Shown here: positions 19,491 to 35,557 of the stretch, in pieces | Layout of the letters: each line of letters opens with the position of its first letter | Numbering within the stretch: the stretch's first letter is position 1 | Sequence record: LC739537.1 | Length of the DNA: 64,000 nt | Reading direction: 5' to 3' (one strand) | Source of the DNA: Escherichia phage phiWec188 | Notes under the pieces: model-generated | What the model was told of the DNA's origin: nothing | The model's database searches: none | The model's input: only the letters and a program-made list of their open reading frames with translations | Program-made: the position numbers and the translations under genes

Positions 19491-19844
19491 TCATAATCTC
19501 CCTCCATCTTTAAGACGACTCTTAACCCAGTGCAGACGATCTGGATCTGTGTGTTGTGAAGCATTTTCCGCATCCAGTAAATAAGACTTTCTTCCGAACG
19601 GATATGTTTCACATAGCTCTGCTTCAATAAACTGATTATACATCTCTTTCATAGTATCTTCGATTAAATACCAGTCACCTTCTGGAAGGTCTAAATCATA
19701 CAACCAATACTCAAGATTGCCACACAAGCCTACAGAAGAGCTAAACACGTCTTCCATAACAAGGCCCGTCTCATCTCGATTTTCAGCCCAAGATAACCAA
19801 GCCTGATAAAAATCTAAAAGCAGTTTACTTGATGCAATCTTCAT
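19491..19844 (-). CDS. paralog family A member 1 (FY-WL-W / GLC-NL / PF / RL-WV family)
   Basis: ORF 19491..19880; shares LLDFYQAWLSW, GLCGNLEYW, YPFG, RLHWVKSRL with eight other ORFs in 19-36 kb. Confidence 0.55.
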   Translation of the reverse strand: MKIASSKLLLDFYQAWLSWAENRDETGLVMEDVFSSSVGLCGNLEYWLYDLDLPEGDWYLIEDTMKEMYNQFIEAELCETYPFGRKSYLLDAENASQHTDPDRLHWVKSRLKDGGRL

Positions 19845-19846
19845 AC

Positions 19847-20032
19847 TCACTCTCCTACACTTTCTGGTGTGCCATCCCAAGCACCTAAGACTTCTTTCAG
19901 GTGTGCACGGGGTTCTTTAAAATACTCTTCCATTTTATCCAGAAGATCGTCTGTGTTTGGGCTGTATCCCAACATCCCACGTAAAACTCTTTCTTCTTGC
20001 AAGACCAACCATCTATGATAGCTTCGAATCAT
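19847..20032 (-). CDS. hypothetical protein (start uncertain)
   Basis: ORF 19847..20164 overlaps neighbour; internal ATG at 20032 gives a compact 61-aa gene. Confidence 0.35.
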   Translation of the reverse strand: MIRSYHRWLVLQEERVLRGMLGYSPNTDDLLDKMEEYFKEPRAHLKEVLGAWDGTPESVGE

Positions 20033-20447
20033 AATATTCCTCCAGGAGTTTCTCAATTCTCTGAACGGTCTTAGTATCCCAATAAACCTTCTTAAAGTCA
20101 AGTGTTCCGTGTGCATTTCTTTTTGTTTCGAAGTAATAACCACCTTCGCGCTCCAAGCGATCACGGATCACTTCTATAAGATGATTTTTAGAGTTTTTTG
20201 TCAAGCAATAGTCATACTCTCCTTTTAAGAGATCTATAGAAGGTTGACGGTTATCTCCAACCTGGGAAATCTTCCAGCTAACCAGCGATCCTTGGATACC
20301 AACATCTGTCTGCTTCACAGAGAAGCCTTTTGAACCCCAGCCTCCCAATGTGACCATTGTTAGCGGTTCTCCTGTTAGAGAGCAGCTAAGGGTGTCATTA
20401 CGTGGTCCACCTAAAGTGGAAAACCATTTGAAAATCTTCTTAAACAT
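20013..20447 (-). CDS. hypothetical protein
   Basis: ORF 20013..20486; ATG 20447 preceded by gaggag. Confidence 0.5.
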   Translation of the reverse strand: MFKKIFKWFSTLGGPRNDTLSCSLTGEPLTMVTLGGWGSKGFSVKQTDVGIQGSLVSWKISQVGDNRQPSIDLLKGEYDYCLTKNSKNHLIEVIRDRLEREGGYYFETKRNAHGTLDFKKVYWDTKTVQRIEKLLEEYYDSKLS

Positions 20448-20473
20448 TTTATGCTCCTCTCGTTCAACATGCA

Positions 20474-20504
20474 CAAACAATAACACCCTCCGAAGAGGGT
20501 GTCA
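20474..20504 (-). terminator. intrinsic terminator (minus strand)
   Basis: Minus strand reads acaccctcTTCGgagggtgttattgtttg. Confidence 0.55.
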
Positions 20505-20508
20505 ATGA

Positions 20509-20718
20509 TTACTCGATCACAAAAAACGTAGCATTCAAACGTCTGAATGTCGCAGGGCTATATCCGTGATCACACTCTTCAATGAACTGATCTGTAGTCT
20601 GATCGTAACTATAATACTGATCATTTTGGAAATGGAAGGACGCACAGAACAAATCATCTCCTACAGTCCACACTGCCACAAAGTTCTTACCGAACGGATA
20701 ACCTTCAACTGCTTTCAT
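20509..20718 (-). CDS. hypothetical protein
   Basis: ORF 20509..20736; ATG 20718 preceded by gaggaggg. Confidence 0.5.
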   Translation of the reverse strand: MKAVEGYPFGKNFVAVWTVGDDLFCASFHFQNDQYYSYDQTTDQFIEECDHGYSPATFRRLNATFFVIE

Positions 20719-20729
20719 TTTCCCTCCTC

Positions 20730-20999
20730 TTACCAAGAAACATACATAGAGTAAACAAGATCATTACAGTCTGTCGAGAACGTAGCACTGCAACCTTGAG
20801 ATCTTAATTTGTCACAAATCCCGCGTACAATCGAAGCTTGTAGTTCTTTACCTTGCGGTAGACCTAAAGCTTTCACTGGGTGTTGAATCTGTATGCTGTA
20901 GTAACCCTCTTCGGCTGCTGTTGTGATTAAGGTTTTTGCTCGTTGGATATACTCAAAGTTCACAGAGTCTGCCAAAGCGTGTAAAGAATATGCGTCCAT
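20730..20999 (-). CDS. hypothetical protein
   Basis: 89 aa ORF; gaggagg RBS. Confidence 0.5.
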   Translation of the reverse strand: MDAYSLHALADSVNFEYIQRAKTLITTAAEEGYYSIQIQHPVKALGLPQGKELQASIVRGICDKLRSQGCSATFSTDCNDLVYSMYVSW

Positions 21000-21008
21000 G
21001 TTACCTCC

Positions 21009-21344
21009 TCAAGAACGATCGAGTTTCATTAAAAATACAATCATAGCTGCACGCAGGGGCTTATCGTCTCCACGGGACGGTACACCTTCTGTTTTCGCAA
21101 GCCAACCGCGAGGAAAACCATCTTCCCCTGTTACAGGACTGATACAAATCCTGTGTTTTACTATGATAGCCCAAGCATCTGCTGGATCATTGCAGTAATC
21201 ATACCAAGTGTAATTGCCGTTGCAGTCATTTCCCACTGATCGTCCATCTGCATTGTGCGGATAACCTAAAGGCTTGACACCGTGGACTGCTGCAAACACA
21301 CGCTTGTTGATTTCAAAATCACTCATTACTCCATATTCTGTCAT
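21009..21344 (-). CDS. hypothetical protein
   Basis: 111 aa ORF; ATGA overlap with upstream gene. Confidence 0.5.
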   Translation of the reverse strand: MTEYGVMSDFEINKRVFAAVHGVKPLGYPHNADGRSVGNDCNGNYTWYDYCNDPADAWAIIVKHRICISPVTGEDGFPRGWLAKTEGVPSRGDDKPLRAAMIVFLMKLDRS

Positions 21345-21670
21345 GTTTTCTCCTTGTTTTTGGATACTGGAAGGATGTTGATCATAACTACACCGTTATA
21401 ATCATAAGTATCGTTAATTTGAGTCTCTACTTCCCGAATATCATCCAGAGTGGGAGGCCAATTTGTAAATTGTACATCAATATTCCCCACACCCAGACTC
21501 TTACCCTCCCTCGGCCTGTAGTTGTACACAAAAACCGTATTGTAGGAGAGTTTTTGATGTTTGTTACGCTTCTTAAAAGTGCGGTCTAAGGCGTAGATGC
21601 TTCCTATGACACATACCGCTACAGCAACAACCACAATGTTAAAATAGAGTTCTTGTAGAATTGCACTCAT
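21341..21670 (-). CDS. membrane protein
   Basis: 109 aa ORF with N-terminal TM helix (NIVVVAVAVCVIGSIYAL). Confidence 0.5.
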   Translation of the reverse strand: MSAILQELYFNIVVVAVAVCVIGSIYALDRTFKKRNKHQKLSYNTVFVYNYRPREGKSLGVGNIDVQFTNWPPTLDDIREVETQINDTYDYNGVVMINILPVSKNKEKT

Positions 21671-21672
21671 TG

Positions 21673-22002
21673 TTATTTACCCCCTTTCAGTTTTGATTTA
21701 ACCCATGCCAACCGTTCTTTGTTCATATGTTGCGTGCCGTGCTCATAATCCTGCATATAAGCTAAGTCACCAAATGGGTACAAGGTGTCTTGGAAATCTT
21801 TGAAAAGCATTTCTGCAAATGCTTCGGTAACTTCGTCAATTTCTTTTAATGAAAACCCTTGTTCCAGTAACCAGTAAGACAAAGAGTCGCAAAGCCCAAC
21901 AAGTGTGCTGAAGGGTTTGACATTCTCTCTTTTCGGAGCCACTTCAGCCCAGGCTAACCATGCCTTAAGAAATTGTTGGATAATCACTTCGTTCTTTGTC
22001 AT
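21673..22002 (-). CDS. paralog family A member 2
   Basis: FLKAWLAW, GLCDSLSYW, YPFG, RLAWVKSKL; 109 aa. Confidence 0.55.
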   Translation of the reverse strand: MTKNEVIIQQFLKAWLAWAEVAPKRENVKPFSTLVGLCDSLSYWLLEQGFSLKEIDEVTEAFAEMLFKDFQDTLYPFGDLAYMQDYEHGTQHMNKERLAWVKSKLKGGK

Positions 22003-22010
22003 TTTAGCTC

Positions 22011-22685
22011 CTATTTAATGTTCAGTTTGTTAAGCAGACGTTGAACCGTATAAGGGTGCCATGTGGTACTGCCACGAACAGTTTCAATTTTCTCTTCAGT
22101 AAAGATCTCTGCGATTCGAGTCAGAGATGCTCCTGCTTTCCTCATTAACGTAACTTTATCACGAAGCTTCTCGGCATACAAGGTGCTTTTATCATTTTTT
22201 CGAGATTGTCTGTAATCTTTACGAGACTCTTTATATTTTGGAGATGCAGATCCTAAGAGAATACCTTTGCTCTTAGCTACTGCCAAACCTTTTTTGATAC
22301 GATCTGCCATACCACGTACTTCCTGTTCTGCAAGGACAGATAGAAGCTGAATAACCATCTTGTCTGCATCCGGCATGATCGCAATCTTAACGTCAATCAT
22401 TTCCAAGAGGATTGCTACCGAGGCGTTGTTACGACCTAAACGGTCCACTTTAGCTACCAAAAGCGTTGCTCCTGTAGCTTTACACATCTCAACAGCCTTG
22501 ACAAGTTCTTTACGTTGCTTCCAGTCGCCTTTACCTGAATAAAATTCAGAAAACTCTCCGATCACTTCAGCCTCCGGCACAGATTCCAAGAAATAACGGA
22601 TATCGTTTTCCTGGCTCTGCATACCATACTGGGCTTCACCTTTCTTCTGTTTAGACAAACGGCTGTAAACAACAAACTTTTTCAT
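22011..22685 (-). CDS. serine recombinase (resolvase/invertase family) with C-terminal HTH
   Basis: N-terminal YSRLS with catalytic Ser context, VAKVDRLGRN motif, C-terminal HTH-like GASLTRIAEIF; about 224 aa. Confidence 0.7.
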   Translation of the reverse strand: MKKFVVYSRLSKQKKGEAQYGMQSQENDIRYFLESVPEAEVIGEFSEFYSGKGDWKQRKELVKAVEMCKATGATLLVAKVDRLGRNNASVAILLEMIDVKIAIMPDADKMVIQLLSVLAEQEVRGMADRIKKGLAVAKSKGILLGSASPKYKESRKDYRQSRKNDKSTLYAEKLRDKVTLMRKAGASLTRIAEIFTEEKIETVRGSTTWHPYTVQRLLNKLNIK

Positions 22686-22695
22686 GATCAACTCC

Positions 22696-22923
22696 TCAAT
22701 CGTTATCAGGATTCCATTTTACAAACTTGAAGCAGTTATTGTCAAGGAATTTATTGGCATCTTTTTCCTGTTTCCAAACGGTGCATTGTTCTTTAAGGGC
22801 TATCTGCTCATTCTGCACGTCTGATACCGCATTAGCAAAGAGGATCAGAAATCCAAAAAAGACCAACATCAATAACAGATTAAAGAAAGTTTGAAAACTC
22901 ATACATCCTCCCATTTGATCCAC
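22696..22923 (-). CDS. small membrane protein
   Basis: 75 aa ORF with hydrophobic core (FNLLLMLVFFGFLILFA). Confidence 0.45.
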   Translation of the reverse strand: MDQMGGCMSFQTFFNLLLMLVFFGFLILFANAVSDVQNEQIALKEQCTVWKQEKDANKFLDNNCFKFVKWNPDND

Positions 22924-23153
22924 AGAATCATTTCTTCAACGTAAACCTCTTTACCTTTGTTATTGATGAAAGTGTATTCTATGAACTCCGCTGTATACTT
23001 TTTGTTGTATTGCTCCGCTGCTGGGATCGGACACTTTGTCATACGTGTCTCAACCCATTGACGATGAATCGTTGCCTTGTTTTTGGGGTCAAACGGGTGT
23101 AAATAGTGCGGTTCTCCCTCTTGACTATGCCCCATTTTATTCTTCTTCGCCAT
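22899..23153 (-). CDS. hypothetical protein
   Basis: ORF 22899..23273; ATG 23153 preceded by ggaggagg; avoids long overlap with upstream gene. Confidence 0.45.
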   Translation of the reverse strand: MAKKNKMGHSQEGEPHYLHPFDPKNKATIHRQWVETRMTKCPIPAAEQYNKKYTAEFIEYTFINNKGKEVYVEEMILWIKWEDV

Positions 23154-23481
23154 GCTGCACCTCCTCCAGACGGTCATACACCCAAGCAAGACGATCGAAG
23201 TTTTTGTGTTGGGTGCCGGACTTCTTCTCAATCCAATAACAAGGAATCCAACCTGACAGATCCCACTCGCCATCGAACGGATAGTTCCATTCTAAACCTT
23301 CCGCTTCAAACTGCTCTACCATTTCATCAGAGAGGGAAAGATACAAATCTTGGTCTTCCCCGCAATACACTTCCACTGCATGACACAAACCGCAAGCTTT
23401 GATGTTTTCGTTCGGATCTTGGCTCATAGCCTGATCCAACCACCACTCATAAAATTCCAGTAAAGCTTCACTTGACCTCAT
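23137..23481 (-). CDS. paralog family A member 3
   Basis: LLEFYEWWL, GLCHAVEVY, YPFDG, RLAWVYDRL; ATG 23481 with RBS. Confidence 0.55.
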   Translation of the reverse strand: MRSSEALLEFYEWWLDQAMSQDPNENIKACGLCHAVEVYCGEDQDLYLSLSDEMVEQFEAEGLEWNYPFDGEWDLSGWIPCYWIEKKSGTQHKNFDRLAWVYDRLEEVQHGEEE

Positions 23482-23854
23482 TTTCTTCCCCTCCCCCTTT
23501 TCCAATAAGCGGCGAAGCCGCGATCATCGACTTATAGACAACTTCGGCTGTTCGGGTTAGCCCCGTCCAGTCCTTCGCTGCCTCCAACATTTCTGGGGTA
23601 GGCTCTTTCGGGACCAAGACATACCCTTCTGGGATACACATTCCACTCGCTTTCTTTTCAGCTTCTTCCGACATAACTTGCCACACTCCGTAGCTGCAAT
23701 TCTCGAACAAACAATAGAGTTCAGATCCTTCATCATCCACGACAATGAAACAGTTCTCATCTGCTACTTTGGCGTTGTAAATCCGACCTATGGTCAAATA
23801 GTCTCGGACATTAATAAACTTAGAGGCAAGAAACTTCACACGAATGTTTTTCAT
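23468..23854 (-). CDS. hypothetical protein
   Basis: 128 aa ORF. Confidence 0.5.
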   Translation of the reverse strand: MKNIRVKFLASKFINVRDYLTIGRIYNAKVADENCFIVVDDEGSELYCLFENCSYGVWQVMSEEAEKKASGMCIPEGYVLVPKEPTPEMLEAAKDWTGLTRTAEVVYKSMIAASPLIGKGGGEENEVK

Positions 23855-24090
23855 TTCTTAAACTCCGAAAAGCAACCCAAAGAGATGACCCCGCCATTAT
23901 AGACGATAGCAAACTGGCACCCTGTCTTTGTGTCTGTGATGATGTAATCTAAAGCCCCAGTCATGCCAGTTTGAACAAAGCGATCCTTGGTTACAACTTT
24001 TGAGTCCGAGAAGCCGTTAACTTCCGGCACAGTGTCTGCCATAACAGCAGGAGTCACCAGAAACAATGCGATCAGTAATGCCTTTTTCAT
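23851..24090 (-). CDS. small secreted protein (signal peptide)
   Basis: MKKALLIALFLVTPAVMADT signal-peptide-like N-terminus; 79 aa. Confidence 0.5.
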   Translation of the reverse strand: MKKALLIALFLVTPAVMADTVPEVNGFSDSKVVTKDRFVQTGMTGALDYIITDTKTGCQFAIVYNGGVISLGCFSEFKK

Positions 24091-24111
24091 AAACCCTCCA
24101 GTAACCTTTGG

Positions 24112-24426
24112 TTAGCCTTGAAATGAATTGCGACGACCAATACGGGCACAGCGATCACCTTCATAAGAGGTGAAATCCAAACTCACTCGGAAGCCAGGGT
24201 GGGTATCAGAGATCCCCACATTCTTCACCCACATCTCGAAACTGCCGATATGTAAGGTCATAATGTTTACATACCATTCCAGCGTCACTTCTGTGCCGTC
24301 TACACCTGTGATGTAAAACTCACGAGCGAAATGGGTGTCGTGCTTCTCTTTCTGACGCTCATACTTAGCGATTGCACCTTTCTCAACAGCCGCTTTCAGG
24401 ATCACTTCTAATTCTTCTATTTGCAT
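24112..24426 (-). CDS. hypothetical protein
   Basis: 104 aa ORF; gaggagag RBS. Confidence 0.5.
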   Translation of the reverse strand: MQIEELEVILKAAVEKGAIAKYERQKEKHDTHFAREFYITGVDGTEVTLEWYVNIMTLHIGSFEMWVKNVGISDTHPGFRVSLDFTSYEGDRCARIGRRNSFQG

Positions 24427-24481
24427 GTTCTCTCTCCTCTTGTTGTTGATGCAATCACTATAATATGTCTGACACTCTCTG

Positions 24482-24697
24482 TCAAATGTTTTCTGCTTCC
24501 AGTACTACTCTCTGGATCTGCACATCATCAATGTTTGCAAGACAAGTCCCTAAGATAAGACCTGCTCGGAAAGGGGCTTGGAATTTGGACGAAGCTCCCA
24601 CTCGGACAGAGTATTCCACACCACACATGGTGTAATCTACACGATACATATTCAAACCCATGAACATCAGTTCTTCTTCCGACTCTTCGATTTGCAT
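24482..24697 (-). CDS. hypothetical protein
   Basis: 71 aa ORF; gaggag RBS. Confidence 0.45.
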   Translation of the reverse strand: MQIEESEEELMFMGLNMYRVDYTMCGVEYSVRVGASSKFQAPFRAGLILGTCLANIDDVQIQRVVLEAENI

Positions 24698-24709
24698 TTT
24701 TATCTCCTC

Positions 24710-25264
24710 TTAGTTCCAACTTATAATGATGTGTTTGATAATCCCAAAAATACTGTGCTCTGCGTTTGCCAACGTTACATCCAAACCTTTTGCACGTAAC
24801 ATTGTAGCTACAACATTTACCCCTCTTTTCTGTTCACTTATCTGCTCATAAGAAGAAGGGCTATTGCACAAACCAAAACTGGAAGGTTCAAAGTATTTTT
24901 CAAACTTCCCTTGCTCCGCACAATCTTCGATCTCTAACAGAACGGAGTCTACCATCTCTGTAAAATGAGAATTTGCTTGCAGTGCTTTATTACGCAGTTT
25001 ATCACGTAAACTTCCCACATACGCTTCCTGACCTTCTTCCTGCTCTTCTTCGTAAAAAGGATGAAGTTCAGCCCACTCCCAAACATCTCCCTCTAAAGCA
25101 AACGTGGTGTTGTAGTTGAAGAAGGTGCAACGTGGAAGTTCCCCGTTGAAAGAGTCCTTCAGCAAAATGTATTTCTTACCATTTGCGTGGAAGAGTTCTC
25201 CTTTGATAACCTTGCCTCTCTGGATATCGCTGTTGGTGGAACGGGTGCAGATAAACTGTTTCAT
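24710..25264 (-). CDS. hypothetical protein
   Basis: 184 aa ORF; gaggag RBS. Confidence 0.55.
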   Translation of the reverse strand: MKQFICTRSTNSDIQRGKVIKGELFHANGKKYILLKDSFNGELPRCTFFNYNTTFALEGDVWEWAELHPFYEEEQEEGQEAYVGSLRDKLRNKALQANSHFTEMVDSVLLEIEDCAEQGKFEKYFEPSSFGLCNSPSSYEQISEQKRGVNVVATMLRAKGLDVTLANAEHSIFGIIKHIIISWN

Positions 25265-25318
25265 GATTTTCTCCTCTCTGTTTCGATGAGATGATTATGC
25301 CAAAGACAGATCCTTCTG

Positions 25319-25645
25319 TCAACCAATTATTTCTTCTGCTACACGTTCTTTTACCCAGTTCACACGATCCACATTCAAATGACAACGGCTTTTTTCCGCT
25401 TCTAAGGTGTACTTTCCAAAATTACTATTGAAAGGCAACACCATAACCAAATCTTTGTGGTAGAACTGCTCATGCATTTCATCCAGTACAGGTTCGTATC
25501 GTTCGCTTTCTCCCATATCGTAAAAATCATAGAGGTTCGTGCACAAACCTGTGCAACGGGTGAACGGTTTACCTTCAGGAGCACCAGCTTCCAACCATGC
25601 CAAATACGTGCGGTAAAATGTTAATAGTTCTTCGCTCATTTCCAC
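25319..25645 (-). CDS. paralog family A member 4
   Basis: LLTFYRTYLAWLEAGAP, GLCTNLYDF, LPFN, RVNWVKERV; 108 aa. Confidence 0.55.
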   Translation of the reverse strand: MEMSEELLTFYRTYLAWLEAGAPEGKPFTRCTGLCTNLYDFYDMGESERYEPVLDEMHEQFYHKDLVMVLPFNSNFGKYTLEAEKSRCHLNVDRVNWVKERVAEEIIG

Positions 25646-25848
25646 TCTCCTTCGTGATAGTAAACCTCAAAAGAATAGTAAGTGAACATGCTCATTGTAA
25701 CACCTCCCATTTCTGGATCAACGGAAGTGTTGTTATATATGTCAACTACTGCCTGACCCGCTGCTTTGGCATGTGCTGCCGAATCACAGGCACAAACATC
25801 TTTCTCCCACGGAAACTTGCCATCATACTTAAGACGGACAATCCACAT
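25636..25848 (-). CDS. hypothetical protein
   Basis: 70 aa ORF. Confidence 0.45.
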   Translation of the reverse strand: MWIVRLKYDGKFPWEKDVCACDSAAHAKAAGQAVVDIYNNTSVDPEMGGVTMSMFTYYSFEVYYHEGEWK

Positions 25849-25850
25849 GC

Positions 25851-26078
25851 TTATTCCTCCATCTCAAACCATTCAGGGAACACTTTACGGAAGACACGGG
25901 TTGTTTCCAAAAGGAATTCCAATTCTTTTTCCAGATCTGCGTTCCAATCATGCACTTTAACATTGATCGCCAATGCACTTGCACGACGACTCAATTCTTG
26001 ACAGATCGGGTCGCGCAACACTATTGAATCATAAAACTGACAAACAGCTTCAAGTTCATACCAATTATAAGCAGCCAT
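25851..26078 (-). CDS. hypothetical protein
   Basis: 75 aa ORF. Confidence 0.45.
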   Translation of the reverse strand: MAAYNWYELEAVCQFYDSIVLRDPICQELSRRASALAINVKVHDWNADLEKELEFLLETTRVFRKVFPEWFEMEE

Positions 26079-26404
26079 TATTCATCCTCCTCTGCAATAC
26101 GATCTCTCACCCAATTAATCCTGTCCACGTTCAGGTGACAGGCATCTGCGTCTGACTCTAAAACATATGCATCATAGTTCTCATTGAAAGGGAGTTCTTG
26201 ACTCAACCCTTTATAGTGGAACTGCGCGTGCATTTCATCTGATAAGGTTGTTATAATAGGATTGTAATTATCTCTGTGCACGTAATCGAACAAATTGGCA
26301 CACAAACCACAATTTGGCAGAAACGGTCTACCGTAAGGGGCACCATCTTCGATCCAGGCAAGGTACTTTTTGTAAAACTTCATCAGATCTTTACTTGTTT
26401 TCAT
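26078..26404 (-). CDS. paralog family A member 5
   Basis: LMKFYKKYLAWIEDGAP, GLCANLFDY, LPFN, RINWVRDRI; about 50 percent identical to member 4. Confidence 0.55.
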   Translation of the reverse strand: MKTSKDLMKFYKKYLAWIEDGAPYGRPFLPNCGLCANLFDYVHRDNYNPIITTLSDEMHAQFHYKGLSQELPFNENYDAYVLESDADACHLNVDRINWVRDRIAEEDE

Positions 26405-26642: not shown

Positions 26643-26643
26643 G

Positions 26644-29185: not shown

Positions 29186-29407
29186 TTATTCCTCGATCAC
29201 TTCCACATCCCAAGAGAAGAATACATAGTCGCAACCTTCCCAAACATCATCTTCCAGGATCTCACAACCTTCCACTTTAGCCATCTCCTCTTGGGAAACG
29301 AAGAATGTTTGCAAATCATCGCTGAAAAGGTGTGCTTCAACAACAAAAGGAAGTTGAACATTTTCAAAACCTACGTAACCTGTAACATCGATAACTTTAA
29401 TCTTCAT
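29186..29407 (-). CDS. hypothetical acidic protein
   Basis: 73 aa ORF. Confidence 0.45.
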   Translation of the reverse strand: MKIKVIDVTGYVGFENVQLPFVVEAHLFSDDLQTFFVSQEEMAKVEGCEILEDDVWEGCDYVFFSWDVEVIEE

Positions 29408-29619
29408 GAGGGTTCTCCTTTATAAAGTAAACCTCTTAGTTCACATTCCGCAACCAATAGACGGTTAGCTTGATTGTCCATAGACACGTCTATCTCCACA
29501 CTCCAAGCATTAATATACACTTCGTTGATCTTTGCGTCAAGCATTTGTGCAACTAAAGCTACCGCTCCGGCGTACTCCAGTTTAATCTCTATAATCATTT
29601 GAGATGATCCCTTACCCAT
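29404..29619 (-). CDS. hypothetical protein
   Basis: 71 aa ORF. Confidence 0.45.
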   Translation of the reverse strand: MGKGSSQMIIEIKLEYAGAVALVAQMLDAKINEVYINAWSVEIDVSMDNQANRLLVAECELRGLLYKGEPS

Positions 29620-29882
29620 TGGATACGGACAGCATTGAGATGAGAACCATCTTCCTTATACTCTCTCGCGTAATCATCCCAATCTTTATTGAACGGGAGT
29701 TCTGGGTCCAACCCCGCAGCTTCGAACTGCTTTGACATTTCATATAGCAAATCATCATCACAATAACCGAAGAAATAGAGATTAGTGCATAAACCCCATT
29801 CACGGCGGAAAGGATTGCCGTCTGGCGCTCCCGCGTCCACCCAATCTGCGTAAGCTTGATAGAACTCTCGTAATGTTTTCAT
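29595..29882 (-). CDS. paralog family A member 6
   Basis: FYQAYADWVDAGAP, GLCTNLYFF, LPFN, RIQWVRDHL; 95 aa. Confidence 0.55.
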   Translation of the reverse strand: MKTLREFYQAYADWVDAGAPDGNPFRREWGLCTNLYFFGYCDDDLLYEMSKQFEAAGLDPELPFNKDWDDYAREYKEDGSHLNAVRIQWVRDHLK

Positions 29883-30235
29883 CGTTTAATGTTCTCCATC
29901 AAAAATTTGATAGCCTCTGCCTGGTCTTGACGGTGATCCAGGTACTCTTTATCCCAATTTATATTGTAACCGCCCTGAATACAAGGGTGAATGACCCCAC
30001 GAATCAGATCGTAGTTATCAATCAGACGGATAACCTTAATATCATCGATCAGAATCCTCCAACCTGGCGGCAAATCTACAGGAACGCCGAGAAACAATGG
30101 CAGATCCTTCGCAGGTTCTTGATAAAGAGCGATCAGGTCTTCCAGGGTTTCAATTAAAAGCTGTGCAGTGACCGATGGATTTGAGAGGCTCATATAAGCA
30201 TCACGTAGGTTTTCGTAGTAAGCTAATGTTTTCAT
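29879..30235 (-). CDS. hypothetical protein
   Basis: ORF 29879..30271; ATG 30235 preceded by aaaggagaaa. Confidence 0.5.
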   Translation of the reverse strand: MKTLAYYENLRDAYMSLSNPSVTAQLLIETLEDLIALYQEPAKDLPLFLGVPVDLPPGWRILIDDIKVIRLIDNYDLIRGVIHPCIQGGYNINWDKEYLDHRQDQAEAIKFLMENIKR

Positions 30236-30543
30236 TGGTTTTCTCCTTTTTCTAAGTGGTTTCTTACCCAAGCAATACGATTAAGGTCAAGGTGCATGTT
30301 GTTTTGGTCCAAACATAAATCAAAAGCTTCTTCCCCGAAAGGATAGGCAGCAGAGAGTCCCGCATCTTCAAACTGATCGGCAAGTTGACGCTCTAAGCGA
30401 GTAAGTATCGAGATATTGTCAGCGCCAGTGTAATATCGAAGATTGCTACACAGCCCTACACCACGGGAGAAAGGTCGGTAAGGCGGAGCGCCATTATCTA
30501 ACCAATCTGCGTATGCCTTGTAATACCCTTCTAATGTTTTCAT
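30232..30543 (-). CDS. paralog family A member 7
   Basis: YYKAYADWLDNGAP, GLCSNLRYY, YPFG, RIAWVRNHL; ATG at 30543. Confidence 0.55.
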   Translation of the reverse strand: MKTLEGYYKAYADWLDNGAPPYRPFSRGVGLCSNLRYYTGADNISILTRLERQLADQFEDAGLSAAYPFGEEAFDLCLDQNNMHLDLNRIAWVRNHLEKGENQ

Positions 30544-30698
30544 AACCACCCCTTATCTTGATAACCTTTAGAAAACCCTTCTTCCCACTCTTGAAACTTT
30601 TCAGGATGTTTATTGGGATCGTAAGGATTGTGGCGGCAAAACATACCGAATTTATAACCCTGTGCGTAGCCTTTATCGAATGCGTTCTTACTCTCCAT
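30540..30698 (-). CDS. small hypothetical protein (52 aa, not in ORF track)
   Basis: ATG 30698 preceded by gaggagaga; stop overlaps family A member 7 start (ATGA). Confidence 0.4.
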   Translation of the reverse strand: MESKNAFDKGYAQGYKFGMFCRHNPYDPNKHPEKFQEWEEGFSKGYQDKGWL

Positions 30699-30710
30699 TG
30701 TTCTCTCCTC

Positions 30711-30983
30711 TTATTCAACGTTCCAGAAAACACCACGTTTGTCTGTAATGTCTATATGATACTCCTCCCACATCTTAGTTACAAGAGGTCTTTCCACATA
30801 ACCATGAAAATAAACTTCAGAATGCACCCCGTAAGCTGTGTAATTGTCAACAGTCCCTTCTACCTTGAAGATCACCATGTCCCCACCTAAAAATCTTTCA
30901 AAGACCAAGGTGAAACAGTCGAACTTAACAACGTCTCCCTCGAAGAGGGAGATATCTTTCACCTTACAGAAATGTCCGATCAT
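30711..30983 (-). CDS. hypothetical protein
   Basis: 90 aa ORF; aaggagag RBS. Confidence 0.5.
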   Translation of the reverse strand: MIGHFCKVKDISLFEGDVVKFDCFTLVFERFLGGDMVIFKVEGTVDNYTAYGVHSEVYFHGYVERPLVTKMWEEYHIDITDKRGVFWNVE

Positions 30984-30992
30984 TTTCTCTCC

Positions 30993-31184
30993 TTAATACA
31001 CATCACCTACAAACCAGATTTCTGGATCGCCATACTGATCCTTCTCGTAAGATTTGTAGACACTACAGCAATATTTCAAAACACCGTCCACAAGGATTGT
31101 TGATCTTTCTTCTGGAATCTCTGTGATCTCCCCTTTACGGGTTTCGAAGATGGTATCACCCTTTTCAATCAGTCGGATTTTCAT
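30993..31184 (-). CDS. hypothetical protein
   Basis: 63 aa ORF; aggagg RBS. Confidence 0.45.
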   Translation of the reverse strand: MKIRLIEKGDTIFETRKGEITEIPEERSTILVDGVLKYCCSVYKSYEKDQYGDPEIWFVGDVY

Positions 31185-31185
31185 A

Positions 31186-31383
31186 TCATGCCTCCTTCAG
31201 TGCGATTAGTGCGTTCACCAGATTATCAACACCTTGATCATCCAGTGCAATAACATCAAAGTTAAACCCTGTATCAGTTGGTACTTTACGTGTTATGGTG
31301 TAATAGTCCCCTGCATGACGTTCAACATATGCGTATGGGTAACTGGTGTTCGGATCATGTTTTACGCGAATAGATGTTTTCAT
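31186..31383 (-). CDS. hypothetical protein
   Basis: 65 aa ORF. Confidence 0.45.
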   Translation of the reverse strand: MKTSIRVKHDPNTSYPYAYVERHAGDYYTITRKVPTDTGFNFDVIALDDQGVDNLVNALIALKEA

Positions 31384-31853
31384 GTTTTGTTCTCCTCTTT
31401 AGTTGCAACACGGAACTTATTAGCTTCTCTCACCTGGAACATGAAGTCTTTCTTCTTCATAATCCCGATGGACATTTCATCCAGTTCTTCTGGGTGGATC
31501 TGGAGATTACGGCGATCAGACAGGAACCAAGTTTTCTCCCACCAGAAGCGTTGATCCTCTTCTTCGTGATACCTGTATGCCTCTTTCTCTTCTTCGGTGA
31601 GAAGTTTGAAGCGATTCTTTCCTTCCCAACGCATTGCTGTGTTAAAAGGAATACCGTTATCCCCATTATACACTGCGGAAGTAGGAAGGCAATAGCCAGT
31701 TTCTGCGTCGATCATTTGGTAGTGAAATTCACATCCCAGTTCAACGTACTCTAAATCCCCATAAAAATCACTGATCAAGAAAGCAATGTAAGTTTCACCA
31801 TGTTCGGGAACAAATTCTTGCTTTGTCAACATTTCCAGTTTCAAACCTGCCAT
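31380..31853 (-). CDS. hypothetical protein
   Basis: 157 aa ORF; aaggagaaag RBS. Confidence 0.55.
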   Translation of the reverse strand: MAGLKLEMLTKQEFVPEHGETYIAFLISDFYGDLEYVELGCEFHYQMIDAETGYCLPTSAVYNGDNGIPFNTAMRWEGKNRFKLLTEEEKEAYRYHEEEDQRFWWEKTWFLSDRRNLQIHPEELDEMSIGIMKKKDFMFQVREANKFRVATKEENKT

Positions 31854-31865
31854 TGCTTTCTCCTT

Positions 31866-32117
31866 TTAGTCGAACCAGTTATATTCGGAAGGGTAACGCG
31901 CATAGTTTGGCTTATACCCCAGCCTTTTCATCTTAACAGACATACGAGTGAAGCCAAAGGTTTTTTTGCCCTTAGACATAAACTTCTTCCCACTCTTCAT
32001 TGGCTTCTTAGGATCTTTGATCGTCTGGTTTAACGCTCGCGCAAGCCACAAAGTGTATGCGCTCGGCACTTGATTAACTTTCATCTTGTTACCTTTCATT
32101 ATTTCACCTCCGACCAA
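31866..32117 (-). CDS. small basic protein
   Basis: 83 aa Lys-rich ORF. Confidence 0.45.
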   Translation of the reverse strand: MVGGEIMKGNKMKVNQVPSAYTLWLARALNQTIKDPKKPMKSGKKFMSKGKKTFGFTRMSVKMKRLGYKPNYARYPSEYNWFD

Positions 32118-32398
32118 TCAACAGTGATCCACTCATATGCTCCATCAGAGTCCATTTCTCTATAAACAACAAGCCCACGCTCACGAAGAATTGCTACTGC
32201 TTCATCCATCCACTTCACTTGATTGGAGATCGCCTCTGGATGGATAGGCGAATTAGCCAAACCAAAATCAGAGGGCGTGAAATTCTTTGAGAAGTTTCCC
32301 GCCCGTGCTTCAGAAAAACAGGTTTCAATCACCTCTTCAATAGGGAATTGGAAGGAAGCCTCTTTTGCAATACGGCGCAGTTGATCAGTCAAATTCAT
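32099..32398 (-). CDS. hypothetical protein
   Basis: 99 aa ORF; gaggagaaatg context. Confidence 0.5.
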   Translation of the reverse strand: MNLTDQLRRIAKEASFQFPIEEVIETCFSEARAGNFSKNFTPSDFGLANSPIHPEAISNQVKWMDEAVAILRERGLVVYREMDSDGAYEWITVDWSEVK

Positions 32399-32463
32399 TT
32401 CATTTCTCCTCTCATTTGTGTATGCAATGATTATCTACCAACGTGATCCTTATGTCAAGCTAT

Positions 32464-32976
32464 TTATTCAAAATAAACTTTAACTTGTGCCGTGCTGTAG
32501 CGATTGTAAATCTCAACCACGGCTTTAGCGTTATCTTCTTTATAGGATTGTGCCAGATCTTCCGCATCTCGGATATTTCCGGCAACACCCACGAGAACAA
32601 GATCCACCATTACAAGATATTTTTTATCTTCTGGACTCTCTTGAGAAGGCTCTTGTACTGGCTCTTCCTTTGGTTCTGGTGGCAAACCAACCTCTGCCTC
32701 AACATAAGAGTCAAACCAAGTGATATCGTTAAAATGCTTTAACTCATGTTTGGACAGCAACATACCACAATCAACGAAAGCACCTGCATTAGCTTCAAAG
32801 ACATGTCCTTCAAATGTTTGGAACTTAACCACATCCCCTTTTTCTGTTGTCTCCAACACCAGGAAGTGTTTTGGACCCAGCAGATCTGAAATCTTACGGT
32901 TCAGATTGACAGCTTCACGGAACGCATTGTACTCTTTTGTATTTTTGAATTTATAGGAATGCCCTTGAATAAACAT
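32464..32976 (-). CDS. paralog family B member 1
   Basis: 170 aa; C-terminal half (VGLPP..., LVMVDLVLVGV, EIYNRYSTAQVKV) aligns with adjacent 32989..33507. Confidence 0.55.
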   Translation of the reverse strand: MFIQGHSYKFKNTKEYNAFREAVNLNRKISDLLGPKHFLVLETTEKGDVVKFQTFEGHVFEANAGAFVDCGMLLSKHELKHFNDITWFDSYVEAEVGLPPEPKEEPVQEPSQESPEDKKYLVMVDLVLVGVAGNIRDAEDLAQSYKEDNAKAVVEIYNRYSTAQVKVYFE

Positions 32977-32988
32977 AATAGTCTCCTC

Positions 32989-33507
32989 TTAGTCAAATAT
33001 CACATTACTTACGAGTTTCGCTGTGCTACGCAGAGTATAAATCTCCACAAGCTTCCCTGGACTCTCTTTCTTCGCTTTCGTGGCTCTTTCTTGCGCCTCT
33101 GAAAAAGATGATACAGTATGCACTACTACGTAGTCAACAATAACTGCAAACTTTTTAGGCACAATATCTGCATCAGGGCGATCGTCGTGTGCGGAAACCT
33201 CCTTGCCTGGCTGCGGTGCCAGCGGCGGCAAGCCCACCATTAACAACGGACCTCCGTCAAAGAAATATCCGATCTCATCGTGCCCAATAAGGAAGCGATC
33301 CATTTGAGCATCACCTACTCCCTGATCCCAGAACAGCTTCTTATCTTCTACGAAGATGATAAGAGATAGGACATTCCCGTAAGCGTCTGTTTTGACTACT
33401 TCAAACCAAAACTCTCCGATCGCTTCAGCCAACTTTTTAGAAATTGATTGAAACAACTCTTGGTACGTGCCTTGTCTGAAACGATAGATATTACCTGGTT
33501 TAAACAT
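32989..33507 (-). CDS. paralog family B member 2
   Basis: 172 aa; VGLPPLAPQP, AVIVDYVVVHTV, EIYTLRSTAKLV shared with 32464..32976. Confidence 0.55.
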   Translation of the reverse strand: MFKPGNIYRFRQGTYQELFQSISKKLAEAIGEFWFEVVKTDAYGNVLSLIIFVEDKKLFWDQGVGDAQMDRFLIGHDEIGYFFDGGPLLMVGLPPLAPQPGKEVSAHDDRPDADIVPKKFAVIVDYVVVHTVSSFSEAQERATKAKKESPGKLVEIYTLRSTAKLVSNVIFD

Positions 33508-33529
33508 TAGTGTCTCCTCTTATGTTAAA

Positions 33530-33988
33530 TTATTGTTCTACTTCACGCAACCACGCTAAAGCCTCTTCTGGAGATTTATCGAAGTCGTTGAGCAGTTCCT
33601 GCTCCAACTCCTCTTTCATTTCATTCAGCACTTGTAGTTGACGTGCCTTTTTCCACAAGGCTACACGATAATCAACACCTTGTGGTGCTTCTTCTGCCAC
33701 TTTTACATTACCTGTCGGGCAGCGAGGAAGATAGTCTTCAATATCTTCCAAGGCACGGCGATAATTGGGGTCCATGTAGTTCACACGAACACGATTACAT
33801 TCTAACAAAGTGGCACGGAACACTTCATAACGTGTTTCGGATAGAATGTGTTTCACACAGACAGCACCAGTATCTTCTGAAATTACACTATACACTTCCA
33901 GTAGGCTGGAGTTTCTCTTGACATAATCTGTAACACATTGCACATATGCTCCCAATATTGTGGAAGCTCTCACTGGTTTTTCGCTCAT
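33530..33988 (-). CDS. hypothetical protein
   Basis: 152 aa ORF; ggggagg RBS. Confidence 0.55.
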   Translation of the reverse strand: MSEKPVRASTILGAYVQCVTDYVKRNSSLLEVYSVISEDTGAVCVKHILSETRYEVFRATLLECNRVRVNYMDPNYRRALEDIEDYLPRCPTGNVKVAEEAPQGVDYRVALWKKARQLQVLNEMKEELEQELLNDFDKSPEEALAWLREVEQ

Positions 33989-34224
33989 TTTCTACCTCCC
34001 CATAATGCCACCATTTTATTAAAGATGGAAGCGCGTCGTGCACGAGATGCTAACATACGATTGGCTTCTTCGTAGCCATCGAACAAACGATCTGTCAATA
34101 CCAACGCCAGTGTCTTCTCTTGCAGAGACTGGCAATTATGTTCAGGACGACAGTCGTGCCCTGCATCGAAGTACAGATTGTTCAGATAATTGTTTGCTCT
34201 CTCATTCTGCTTTGCAGTGATCAC
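33985..34224 (-). CDS. hypothetical protein
   Basis: 79 aa ORF; aaggaggg RBS. Confidence 0.5.
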   Translation of the reverse strand: MITAKQNERANNYLNNLYFDAGHDCRPEHNCQSLQEKTLALVLTDRLFDGYEEANRMLASRARRASIFNKMVALWGGRK

Positions 34225-34233
34225 AATCCCTCC

Positions 34234-34464
34234 TTAGTGAACAATTTCATATTCATGAGGAAGGAAAACATAATCTTCCCCTTCACCTGCATCTTCTTCA
34301 TCCCAGAAGAAACCTGGTATCTCAATCATCTTCGAAAAGCGCACATGGGCCAGCCCACTATACCCTATTTGTGCATTCAGCACAACGGGTAACTCTGCAC
34401 CAATCAGACCTACATACCCACAAGCGGTTTCAATACGAATTTTCATACGTTTCATGTTATGCAT
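34234..34464 (-). CDS. hypothetical protein
   Basis: 76 aa ORF. Confidence 0.45.
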   Translation of the reverse strand: MHNMKRMKIRIETACGYVGLIGAELPVVLNAQIGYSGLAHVRFSKMIEIPGFFWDEEDAGEGEDYVFLPHEYEIVH

Positions 34465-34666
34465 CTTTCATATTCTCCACGAAGTGACGAGCAACAGGAT
34501 TCCCGTAGAAATATTCATTGATGAAATCGATCACACACGTTTCACTGCCTGTCACAACGGACGGTGCGAAGTTTCGGAACTGCACGAGTACACGACTTGC
34601 GTTAGCAAGGGTGTGCACACGATCAGTGTTAGCTAAATACAAGGATACAGTTTTCATATTTGACAT
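34457..34666 (-). CDS. hypothetical protein
   Basis: 69 aa ORF; gaggag RBS. Confidence 0.45.
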   Translation of the reverse strand: MSNMKTVSLYLANTDRVHTLANASRVLVQFRNFAPSVVTGSETCVIDFINEYFYGNPVARHFVENMKDA

Positions 34667-34725
34667 TTCAATCTCCTCATTGGCTATCTGTTATGCGCGG
34701 TATGCAAACCACTATACAGACATTT

Positions 34726-35088
34726 TTATTCAATGCAAGCATTATTTACATCTTCGATACGATCTTCCACCCATTGCACACGCAGTTTGTTGAGATGACA
34801 TTTTCTGTTTTCACATTCTTCCTCGTAGTCGAAGAAGTCAGTATTGAAAGGTGTGCTTTTAGACAACCCTGCATAGATAAACTGTATCATCATTTCATCA
34901 CCTAAAGCTTCACGCATCTCCCAGAACATATCCACATCAGCCCCATGCTTCGGATATAATACTTCCCATGCAAAATTGCCTAAACATACGCACAAGCCAT
35001 TCGCTGTGTTCGCCAACTCACTACGGTTAGCCATCCAATTCTTATAGAACATCAGAAGAGTATCACTACTCAAGGGAATATTTTTCAT
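34726..35088 (-). CDS. paralog family A member 8
   Basis: LLMFYKNWMA, GLCVCLGNF, TPFN, RVQWVEDRI; 120 aa. Confidence 0.55.
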   Translation of the reverse strand: MKNIPLSSDTLLMFYKNWMANRSELANTANGLCVCLGNFAWEVLYPKHGADVDMFWEMREALGDEMMIQFIYAGLSKSTPFNTDFFDYEEECENRKCHLNKLRVQWVEDRIEDVNNACIE

Positions 35089-35089
35089 A

Positions 35090-35557
35090 TCAGGCTCCTT
35101 TACGATTATGCAAACAATCTTTCACTCGTTCTTGCACCCACTCTACACGAAGCTTGTTTTCATGCGCTCTGCTGTGGTTATACTCTCGCACATATTCTTC
35201 GTAGTTCACATTAAAGGGAACACTGACAGACAATCCTGCGCAACGGAATTGTTTCTTCATTTCTTTTAATGTTGCATCACTTATGGCACAAAGCTGTTTT
35301 GCCTGTTCCTCACTGAAATTACGGTCCCACATCTCATCCCAGATAAAGGTATCCAAGCATACACATAACCCATTCCTTGTGCGCTCTTTGGTATGATGAT
35401 CAGCAAGCCAACTTTCATAGAAGGCTAACAACATTGGACTACTCAACGGAACATTTTTACTCTCTTGCATGATAATCTCCTCTCTTGGTTTCATGACAAA
35501 CATCGTAACTCTCAACGAGGAACATCTTACGATCAATCCTCGGCAATTACAATTCAT
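35090..35557 (-). CDS. paralog family A member 9 (start uncertain)
   Basis: LLAFYESWLA, GLCVCLDTF, VPFN, RVEWVQERV; likely starts at internal Met (MQESKN...). Confidence 0.5.
   Translation of the reverse strand: MNCNCRGLIVRCSSLRVTMFVMKPREEIIMQESKNVPLSSPMLLAFYESWLADHHTKERTRNGLCVCLDTFIWDEMWDRNFSEEQAKQLCAISDATLKEMKKQFRCAGLSVSVPFNVNYEEYVREYNHSRAHENKLRVEWVQERVKDCLHNRKGA

Follow-up and report, generated by a model that had tools for sequence, protein, structure and literature searches.

N4 gp3-like proteins in phage phiWec190: a nine-copy, phage-restricted family with a possible role in early host interference

Background

The class I early host-interference genes of phage T7 include gp0.3 Ocr. 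The PDB holds solved structures of Ocr and ArdA, and the Tad1, Tad2 and Acb2 families have also been solved. The classical superinfection exclusion proteins Sie, Imm, Sp and Cor act at the envelope. Phage N4 carries a small gene, gp3, between gp2 and RNAPII and beside gp1/gp2, the middle-transcription cofactors. The N4 products gp1, gp2, gp15 and gp16 are early, and the paper reporting this gives no function for gp3 (PMC4496689).

The DNA analysed here (the window, 64,000 nucleotides) belongs to phiWec190, a phage of the Stephanstirmvirinae. A first-pass annotation had proposed nine diverged paralogs of about 100–120 aa in its leftward small-gene block. All nine ORFs are present on the minus strand at the coordinates it gave, and the proteins measure 95–126 aa. 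With two revised starts, the genes are:

Member 1, 19491..19844, minus strand: 117 aa, pI 4.4; HMM score 125.6 bits, leave-one-out E 5.6e-27; AGGAG 5' of the ATG; orthologue in phiWec179 93% identical, dN/dS 0.16
Member 2, 21673..22002, minus strand: 109 aa, pI 5.4; 114.5 bits, leave-one-out E 4.7e-18; the most divergent copy, with FL in place of FY in helix 1; TAGGAG 5' of the ATG; annotated as BDU13899.1
Member 3, 23137..23481, minus strand: 114 aa, pI 4.1; 123.8 bits, leave-one-out E 2e-21; 27 acidic and 7 basic residues (net charge -20); insertion C-terminal to the PF motif; 14–17 nt overlap with each neighbouring gene
Member 4, 25319..25639, minus strand: 106 aa from the annotated ATG (108 aa from GTG 25645); 134.5 bits; near-identical orthologues in phiWec179 and phAPEC8
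Member 5, 26078..26404, minus strand: 108 aa; 151.5 bits; nearest to the family consensus; orthologues of 82–90% identity in 63 phage records
Member 6, 29595..29882, minus strand: 95 aa, the shortest copy; 124.5 bits; minimal alpha2-alpha3 connector; dN/dS 0.02 against phiWec179
Member 7, 30232..30543, minus strand: 103 aa; 123.5 bits; 4-nt ATGA overlap at both ends; no reciprocal best match in phiWec179, and the same holds for the adjoining gene 29879-30235
Member 8, 34726..35088, minus strand: 120 aa; 120.5 bits; long-connector subfamily; clusters with the phAPEC8 and Paula copies that lie directly after the noncoding gap
Member 9, 35090..35470, minus strand: 126 aa, pI 6.5; 118.0 bits; first gene past the 1.5-kb noncoding gap

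The ninth gene had been drawn from 35557. Its start is most likely 35470, because a Shine-Dalgarno sequence is found there (AGAGAGGAGATTATC-ATG, with AGGAG 5' of the ATG) in agreement with the GenBank annotation BDU13857.1 (381 nt), whereas none was found at 35557. The ORF at 25319 has its annotated start at the ATG at 25639 and not at the GTG at 25645. A Shine-Dalgarno sequence and an ATG are present at all nine genes, and there are 4-nt overlaps with adjoining genes. Together with dN/dS values of 0.02–0.61 and orthologues kept across genera, this identifies them as real, translated-looking genes under purifying selection.

Nine genes of one family

Judged by sequence, the nine ORFs form one homologous paralogous family, as had been proposed. 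They align collinearly in MAFFT, with G-L-C, P-F, H, R and W-V invariant, at pairwise identities of 21–51% (mean 32%). In the motif set described earlier, the N-terminal W and the trailing x-x-R are not invariant. An HMM built from any eight copies recovers the ninth among 755 window ORFs (E 5e-18 to 2e-37 for every member), and single-linkage clustering of BLASTP matches places all nine in one cluster. A six-frame HMM scan of the window returns exactly nine copies, the next match having E = 0.43, and no further member occurs in the other 87 kb of the genome. The most similar pairs are genomic neighbours: members 4 and 5 (51%), 6 and 7 (44%), 8 and 9 (40%), and 1 and 2 (39%). This closeness of the nearest relatives bears out the suggestion of repeated duplication and divergence, which here was local.

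All nine proteins independently match phrog_2510 (best E 2.5e-31), which is the same domain. Overlapping PHROGs are matched by eight (27059), seven (6418) and four (2176) of the nine copies. All four PHROGs are annotated as "unknown function", and none of the PHROG matches is structural. The family has therefore already been catalogued, as PHROG 2510, with no function assigned, and PHROGs record neither the expansion to nine copies nor the links to N4 gp3 and prophages nor the tandem-domain fusions. The first reading could not place the family in a named domain, and our searches agree: none of the nine copies has a significant family match in Pfam, NCBIfam or PADLOC, the precomputed Pfam entry is "-" for all homologues, and a PDB sequence search with two profiles returned nothing below E 0.6. 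Every one of the 24–32 matches in a word-indexed homologue search is named "hypothetical", and a cluster look-up of homologues returned no protein names. The family was not found in the literature on Phapecoctavirus paralogs, phrog_2510, N4 gp3 and YP_950481, is not mentioned in the phiWec genome paper, and none of six GLCxN motif strings occurs in the supplements of a phage accessory-gene screen.

Genomic setting

Ahead of the block lie at least 15 TTGACA-N17-TAAGAT promoters in an array, and a terminator and the 1.5-kb gap separate the two. There is no per-gene early promoter module in the block itself; its coding strand carries four sigma-70 matches of 11/12. The presumed structural region, with its large ORFs, occupies another part of the genome, at about 47–83 kb of the record. 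Among the family members, early status is firmly established only for the region around the N4 orthologue (PMC4496689). In the window phage it is position only that points to early timing; transcription data on related phages (early genes of Stephanstirmvirinae, RNA-seq of phAPEC8) were not found in the literature. An Rfam scan of 14–50 kb detected no RNA family, and a tRNA search of the window detected none.

Distribution across phages

An exhaustive profile search gave 1,999 representatives at E<=1e-3, of which 1,095 have E<=1e-10; the family thus has about 2,000 clusters at the 50% identity level. They seemingly all come from phages or prophages of Proteobacteria. The family is found in 262 phage records, only one of 72,556 plasmids carries a member, and the bacterial matches that were examined are located in prophages. 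The family is phage-restricted.

The orthologue of N4 gp3 from Enquatrovirus vB_Eco_SPSP, annotated as "gp3 [Escherichia phage N4]", scores 64.7 bits (E 5.5e-22) against a profile made from the window's nine copies. T7-like phages carry a member at the left end, exemplified by ORF5 of RSB1, upstream of a gp0.7-like kinase. A lambdoid prophage copy lies in the early-left operon, adjoining Ead/Ea22, DUF551 and YfdP, and a Mu-like prophage copy is found in the semi-essential early region between gam/gp11 and gemA/mor. Canonical Mu has no member at the corresponding slot, an absence typical of non-essential, swappable cargo. The Vequintavirinae have a single copy just downstream of the DNA polymerase, amid replication genes. 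The phAPEC8 block follows annotated host-dependent promoters and falls in the first 24 kb as the record is numbered, a numbering that does not denote a mapped physical end. In every genome whose map can be interpreted, the member genes occupy early or accessory regions.

Duplication history and selection

Per syntenic block there are nine copies in phiWec190, nine in phiWec179, seven in phAPEC8 and four in Paula, whereas other phage groups have one or two copies each. The lineages of members 4, 5 and 6 and the clade of members 8 and 9 are common to phAPEC8 or Justusliebigvirus, and copies have been both gained and lost between sister phages. The expansion arose by local duplications within the long leftward small-gene block of the Stephanstirmvirinae, and these are old, since several paralog lineages are common to phAPEC8.

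Orthologues in phiWec190 and phiWec179 are 88–99% identical, with dN/dS of 0.02–0.61 (pooled 0.24) and no value above 1. A recent, fast-evolving arms-race family was considered and rejected, given the age of the paralog lineages and dN/dS values below 1. The earlier suggestion of repeated duplication and diversification is thus supported, with the qualification that the diversification is old and stabilised rather than an ongoing arms race.

Protein properties and conserved residues

The family consists of soluble, mostly acidic, single-domain proteins of about 100 aa. The pI is 4.1–5.4 in eight copies and 6.5 in one, and net charge is mostly -3 to -11. Maximum Kyte-Doolittle hydropathy over 19 residues is 0.29–0.95 in all nine, against a cut-off of about 1.6, and no transmembrane segment or signal peptide was found in any of them.

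An AlphaFold2 model of member 5, the one window copy modelled, predicts five helices (pLDDT 94.4, pTM 0.87), and the fold of the other eight is taken from the alignment. A fold search with this model against solved structures in the PDB found no structural neighbour; matches in BFVD (TM 0.76–0.84) are uncharacterised phage proteins.

Among 233 distinct domain sequences, C35 and R95 are invariant in 232–233. F10, G33-L34-C35, P72-F73, R95 and W98 are each kept in at least 97%, V99 in 94%, H90 in 87%, N92 in 84%, and E57 and Q61 in about 80%. About 8% of domains have Tyr or Trp in place of His90, and the three domains of P0041 are all among them. Many of the conserved residues are aromatic (F10, Y11, W17, F28, F62, F73, Y80 and W98), and the conservation of the polar residues extends over phages of alpha-, beta- and gamma-proteobacteria. 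Among the top 150 representatives, at least 16 have two domains and one has three. A model of a two-domain fusion (pLDDT 94.5, pTM 0.81) predicts rigid packing. Since such natural fusions exist and the modelled one is predicted to pack rigidly, the single-domain proteins probably form dimers or higher oligomers. For the extra regions of P0165, P0168 and P0062, the only matches are to PHROGs of unknown function.

Possible function

Our best guess, to which we give a probability of roughly 40%, is that the proteins are early cytoplasmic host-interference binders, active in counter-defence or takeover. On this view they would be produced ahead of replication and would bind host proteins stoichiometrically in the cytoplasm, so as to neutralise or redirect them; the host proteins concerned would be either defence components or takeover targets. 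An invariant scaffold with a polar patch (C35, H90, N92, R95, E57 and Q61) would do the common job, and the variable-length alpha2-alpha3 connector, with about 20 lineage-specific surface positions, might give each paralog its own specificity. Of the three parallels named earlier, the anti-defence one (or host interference) fits the early or accessory placement in many phage lineages. Several observations speak against host-interference binders. About eight invariant polar residues across proteobacterial phages suit a conserved ligand or catalytic site better than a protein target that evolves fast, the conserved orthologues with no dN/dS above 1 carry no arms-race signature, and the Vequintavirinae copy lies beside the DNA polymerase. 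A generic anti-restriction role is hard to reconcile with the virtual absence from plasmids. No likeness to known anti-defence or takeover proteins was found by sequence (PADLOC, PDB) or by fold, and no fold shared with the solved Ocr, ArdA, Acb2, Tad1/2, Acr families or AsiA was found.

The near-universal C35 and R95 and the high conservation of H90, N92, E57 and Q61, kept across phages of three proteobacterial classes, could also be read as a ligand-binding or catalytic domain. C35, H90, N92 and R95 and the aromatics would then form a pocket that sequesters a small molecule, e.g. an immune-signalling nucleotide or NAD-derived signal in the manner of Tad1, Tad2 and Acb2, or catalyses a reaction, with paralogs differing in ligand or substrate. 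The many conserved aromatics and the likely oligomerisation, typical of sponge proteins, agree with this. We nevertheless find this reading doubtful, as there is no fold or sequence likeness to a solved sponge or enzyme, the Tyr or Trp at position 90 is awkward for a catalytic His, the four residues may be buried structural ones, and known sponges are single-copy per phage. The setting of the Vequintavirinae member in a replication module, that of N4 gp3 between gp1/gp2 and RNAPII, and the well-conserved orthologues suggest instead adaptors, chaperones or regulators of the phage's own replication, transcription or DNA metabolism. Such a role is improbable in our view: the carriers (T7-like, N4-like, Mu-like, lambdoid and large myoviruses) have unrelated replication and transcription machineries with no evident common partner, and the genes behave as replaceable cargo, present in Mu-like prophages and not in Mu, with copy number ranging from 1 to 9. 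The acidic pI also speaks against direct DNA binding, and a DNA-binding regulator was rejected on that ground.

Superinfection exclusion and host range had been named earlier as parallels, and both are very unlikely. A general analogy with multi-copy diversified phage families is all that recommends them, although protection of a lysogen by the lambdoid and Mu-like prophage copies is conceivable. Classical exclusion is opposed by the lack of membrane or export signals noted above, and host range by small soluble proteins encoded in a presumably pre-replicative block, neither in nor near virion or tail-fibre modules. Most carriers are strictly virulent, and the prophage copies occupy a lytic early operon rather than a repressor-adjacent or lysogeny-expressed moron position.

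Returning to early host interference, a more specific version would make the N4 gp3-like domain a new counter-defence fold, an oligomeric sponge or a direct inhibitor acting through the Cys/His/Asn/Arg patch, of which the Stephanstirmvirinae keep nine specificity variants as a multi-target arsenal. This is a speculation that we hold to be unlikely; if true, no larger anti-defence expansion of a single family would be known from a phage genome.

The family, with its thousands of phage-confined relatives and neither a Pfam entry nor a solved structural relative, recurs in early or accessory locations in N4-like, T7-like, lambdoid and Mu-like phages and large myoviruses. Nine conserved paralogs kept in one subfamily amount to roughly 3% of its genes. 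Together these features make it a well-defined candidate, amenable to experiment, for a host-interference or counter-defence mechanism that would be new, and phages of E. coli K-12 such as N4 and BASEL isolates, with single copies, are usable as test systems. A function for any one member would allow annotation of thousands of phage genes. If the role is housekeeping, what remains is a neat piece of annotation for a set of expanded paralogs.

Comparison with known systems

T7 Ocr-type genes resemble the family in being small, acidic and cytoplasmic, and the T7-like member is in the same left-end early region. There is no likeness to Ocr in sequence or fold, however, and the charge of the family is not Ocr-like except in member 3; Ocr-type DNA mimicry was therefore rejected. 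Unlike the anti-restriction proteins ArdA and KlcA, the family is virtually absent from plasmids. Tad1, Tad2 and Acb2 are likewise small, phage-restricted and probably oligomeric, with conserved aromatics and Arg, but the family has no fold match in the PDB, is multi-copy in the window, and its ligand binding is hypothetical. The lambdoid ea/ead and Mu semi-essential early slots are positional classes rather than protein families and are silent on mechanism, although family members lie in exactly such slots in E. coli prophages. N4 itself differs from the window phage as a podovirus with a virion RNA polymerase and a quite different transcription programme, and its gp3 is single-copy and only about 30% identical to the window copies. 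Even so, gp3 is a small early-region gene that encodes the same domain, with GLC, PF and H-L-N-x-x-R-x-x-W intact.

Homology and gene models of the nine-copy family

A first-pass annotation had described nine paralogous ORFs in the leftward small-gene block. All nine are present on the minus strand, and are numbered here by rising coordinate:

19491–19844, minus strand, member 1
21673–22002, minus strand, member 2
23137–23481, minus strand, member 3
25319–25639, minus strand, member 4
26078–26404, minus strand, member 5
29595–29882, minus strand, member 6
30232–30543, minus strand, member 7
34726–35088, minus strand, member 8
35090–35470, minus strand, member 9

The MAFFT alignment was collinear, with G-L-C, P-F, H, R and W-V invariant in the nine copies and pairwise identities of 21–51% (mean 32%). 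In leave-one-out searches of the window's 755 stop-to-stop ORFs, an HMM of eight members recovered the ninth with E = 5e-18 to 2e-37. Furthermore, BLASTP single linkage placed all nine in one cluster, and all nine independently matched PHROG 2510. Because alignment, HMMs, clustering and PHROG matches agree, the nine-copy observation is confirmed as one homologous family, far above chance. The full HMM gave exactly nine matches in the window (next best E = 0.43) and none in the remaining 87 kb of the genome.

The proposed ORF coordinates stood except for two starts. The ninth gene, previously drawn from 35557, where a Shine-Dalgarno sequence was sought and found absent, almost certainly starts at 35470, where AGGAG is present and the annotation concurs. 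The 25319 gene is annotated from an ATG at 25639 (25645 with a GTG start). Each of the nine genes starts with an ATG behind a Shine-Dalgarno motif, and most lie -25 to +8 nt from neighbouring genes, including typical ATGA 4-nt overlaps. Eight of the nine members have a reciprocal-best orthologue, 88–99% identical, in the sister phage phiWec179. The dN/dS values of these pairs, 0.02–0.61 (pooled 0.24), show that purifying selection acts on the members, though a little less strictly than on 58 neighbouring genes (0.15; one-sided Mann-Whitney p = 0.02). The dN/dS of the eight phiWec190/phiWec179 orthologue pairs gave no hint of positive selection.

Positions 19,000–36,000 matched Escherichia phage phiWec190 (LC739539.1; Stephanstirmvirinae, filed under Phapecoctavirus) at 100% by megablast, and phiWec179, phiWec181, phiWec186 and a record named Pseudomonas phage PsgM04F at 94–95%. 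All genes in the region are annotated "hypothetical protein". "Wecvirus" was proposed in 2025 as a genus for the phiWec phages, for which direct terminal repeats are given; the family is not mentioned in that genome paper (PMC12695924). The first 148 nt of LC739539.1 equal its last 148 nt, and the window spans the junction at ~20,786–20,933; the identity is probably an assembly overlap, not a true terminal repeat. The PsgM04F record (OR584014.1, host Pseudomonas coronafaciens) shares 94.5% identity with the window phage across 17 kb, and several other Stephanstirmvirinae records are titled 'Campylobacter phage' or 'Acinetobacter phage'. The host labels of all these records look doubtful.

Protein properties and predicted fold

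The nine proteins had no match in Pfam, NCBIfam or PADLOC, nor in a PDB sequence search, in line with the first reading that no known domain could be assigned; the match in phage databases is the uncharacterised PHROG 2510. They are acidic (pI 4.1–5.4, one at 6.5), and none has a hydrophobic segment fitting a membrane helix. Structure prediction, which had also been proposed, covered one window member, 26078–26404. The AlphaFold2 model from a 40-sequence alignment is confident (pLDDT 94.4, pTM 0.87) and has helices at residues 5–19, 34–42, 50–64, 77–85 and 93–107. Foldseek gave no PDB match with E < 2, and matches in BFVD (TM 0.76–0.84) were uncharacterised phage proteins only, from phages of Burkholderia, Rhizobium, Achromobacter, Klebsiella, Pectobacterium, Delftia, Erwinia and Escherichia.

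Over 233 distinct domains, F10, G33-L34-C35, P72-F73, R95 and W98-V99 (numbering of member 26078) are near-invariant. H90 is retained in 87%, being otherwise Y or W, N92 in 84%, and E57, Q61, F62, L67 and Y80 each in at least 80%. Among the top 150 representatives, 16 or more carry two family domains, and one carries three, with near-zero linkers. The model of one two-domain protein, P0033, implies a fixed domain-domain arrangement, because pLDDT is 94.5 and pTM 0.81. Since tandem fusions are predicted to pack in this fixed way, single-domain members may act as homo- or hetero-oligomers.

Organisation of the leftward block

From ~49 kb down to ~14.7 kb all genes lie on the minus strand. Three kinds of noncoding feature accompany them:

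38,290–48,230, coding strand minus, intergenic promoter module of ~75 nt, at least 15 copies
35,471–37,015, directly upstream of members 9 and 8, noncoding gap of 1.5 kb, AT/T-rich with degenerate short repeats
35,817–36,803 and 48,866–49,064, sites of the palindrome AATGAGAATNATTCTCATT, confined to these two noncoding regions bracketing the promoter array

Between 48.2 and 38.3 kb nearly every tiny gene is preceded by the conserved module, which reads on the coding strand as a near-consensus sigma-70 promoter (TTGACA-N17-TAAGAT-like or TATCAC-like) with a conserved hairpin, GCGGCAATGGTGCCGC, downstream of it. The modules match the "host dependent promoters" annotated in the related phage phAPEC8, and the series resembles an array of immediate-early promoters whose 5'-UTRs share a stem-loop. 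The array stops just short of the paralog block and is followed by a strong terminator at 37038–37016. With up to 3 mismatches allowed, the 19-bp palindrome matches 14 times where 0.11 matches are expected. Its sequence is similar to the E. coli Fur box (35823–35841, minus strand, contains GATAATGATAAT), and the sites could be operators for a phage or host regulator.

The densely packed paralog block starts after the gap, with members 9 and 8 as its first two genes. In phiWec179, phAPEC8 and Justusliebigvirus Paula, too, two or three tandem members come after a gap of ~1.5–1.7 kb. An Rfam scan of the gap gave no match. The gap may hold the genome terminus, a packaging site or an origin, because the phi92-derived gene labels jump across it from gp248 to gp002. 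The per-gene promoter module is absent from the paralog block, where the coding strand carries four sigma-70 matches of 11/12 (32458, 25322, 24485 and 22745). Judged by position, the upstream array and these internal matches make pre-replicative expression of the nine genes seem likely, with the terminator and the gap in between counting against it. A literature search found no transcriptome for phiWec190's group.

Mid-block, a 224-aa minus-strand ORF (22011–22685) lies under the megablast match to PsgM04F, whose annotation there includes a 'DNA invertase'; a phAPEC8 gene at a similar position is noted as 'putative site-specific recombinase'. The likeness is one of position. The rightward block (1–14,700, plus strand) encodes a Sir2/CobB-like deacylase, a Ser/Thr phosphatase and the dTDP-rhamnose pathway enzymes RfbC, RfbD and glucose-1-phosphate thymidylyltransferase; DNA or host-surface modification functions are possible.

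History of the expansion

By HMM the syntenic block holds nine copies in phiWec190, nine in phiWec179, seven in phAPEC8 and four in Paula, and vequintavirus UPEC06 has one copy in the examined region, non-syntenic with the nine-copy block. The two nine-copy sets differ in content: 30232–30543 and its neighbour 29879–30235 occur in phiWec190 and not in phiWec179, which has a further copy at the upstream end with orthologues in phAPEC8 and Paula. The closest paralogs are genomic neighbours. This fits the repeated duplication suggested earlier and points to copies made locally in tandem, with other genes inserted afterwards. In a neighbour-joining tree the lineages of 25319, 26078, 29595 and the long-connector clade (34726/35090) group with phAPEC8 or Paula copies, so most duplications are older than the split of these genera.

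The diversification also proposed is seen in lineage-specific positions. Most positions are conserved within each lineage, and the ~20 lineage-specific ones cluster in the variable-length alpha2-alpha3 connector, at 69–75 and at 86–89. The picture of a conserved scaffold with stable lineage-specific surfaces suggests old sub- or neo-functionalisation, not ongoing hypervariation.

Two stretches (34726...34234 and 29595...29186) show the same succession of a family member, one small gene and an MKI(K/R)-protein, and this repetition points to an old segmental duplication. Another four two-member paralog pairs (25–40% identity) lie in the same block:

17475–17928, minus strand
24710–25264 with 32099–32398, minus strand
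29186–29407 with 34234–34464, minus strand
32464–33507, minus strand

Distribution and possible function

An exhaustive profile search gave 1,999 cluster representatives (50% identity) at E<=1e-3, 1,095 of them at E<=1e-10, and tblastn found the family in 262 phage records. Copies are many in Stephanstirmvirinae and number 1–4 in Vequintavirinae; other tblastn carriers are N4-like phages, T7-like phages of Ralstonia, Rhizobium and Klebsiella, one Xanthomonas jumbo phage and ~45–48 kb siphoviruses of Escherichia, Salmonella and Shigella. N4 and BASEL isolates such as Bas80 have one copy each. The family is essentially absent from plasmids (1 match in 72,556 records).

An Enquatrovirus gene annotated "gp3 [Escherichia phage N4]" and located between the gp2 and RNAPII genes is a clear member (64.7 bits). 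The region around gp3 of N4 encodes the early products gp1, gp2, gp15 and gp16, and no function is given for gp3 (PMC4496689). ORF5 of T7-like Ralstonia phage RSB1 is also a member; it lies directly upstream of a gp0.7-like kinase in the early region at the left end. Two adjoining members lie close to the left end of Rhizobium phage RHEph02. An E. coli lambdoid prophage member (L003 8001–8405) lies in the early-left operon running leftward from the repressor, among YfdP, DUF2303, Ead/Ea22 and DUF551 genes. Widespread Mu-like E. coli prophages carry a 129-aa member (L012 7001–7390) between gam/gp11 and gemA/mor, found in 395 blocks of the searched collection, complete chromosomes among them. 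Canonical Mu has no member and its corresponding slot is filled by gp12–gp15, so the Mu-like prophage member behaves as swappable accessory cargo. The sole counter-example to early or accessory placement is a Vequintavirinae phage with its single copy directly downstream of DNA polymerase.

Members occupy early or accessory regions in five unrelated phage architectures, and the family is confined to phages, replaceable and acidic. These features favour, tentatively (probability about 0.4), small soluble proteins that would be produced before replication and act on the host. The main rival, a ligand-binding or catalytic role of the invariant C35/H90/N92/R95 patch, would fit the very deep conservation of polar residues better than a protein-protein arms race does, but H90 is substituted by Tyr or Trp and the fold has no relative, which leaves this role doubtful. 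A phage-internal role is suggested by the vequintavirus copy beside DNA polymerase; we consider it unlikely, as carriers of the family have unrelated replication and transcription systems. A role in superinfection exclusion or host range, raised in the first-pass annotation, is highly improbable given the gene position and the lack of envelope-targeting features. The family offers a clean experimental target.

The family itself is already known from PHROG 2510 and relatives, and its genes are deposited as hypothetical proteins. New are the nine-member count and its build-up, the links to N4 gp3 and the prophage slots, the orphan fold and the tandem fusions. The nine copies thus add members to a catalogued but uncharacterised family and represent an expansion of it that had not been reported.
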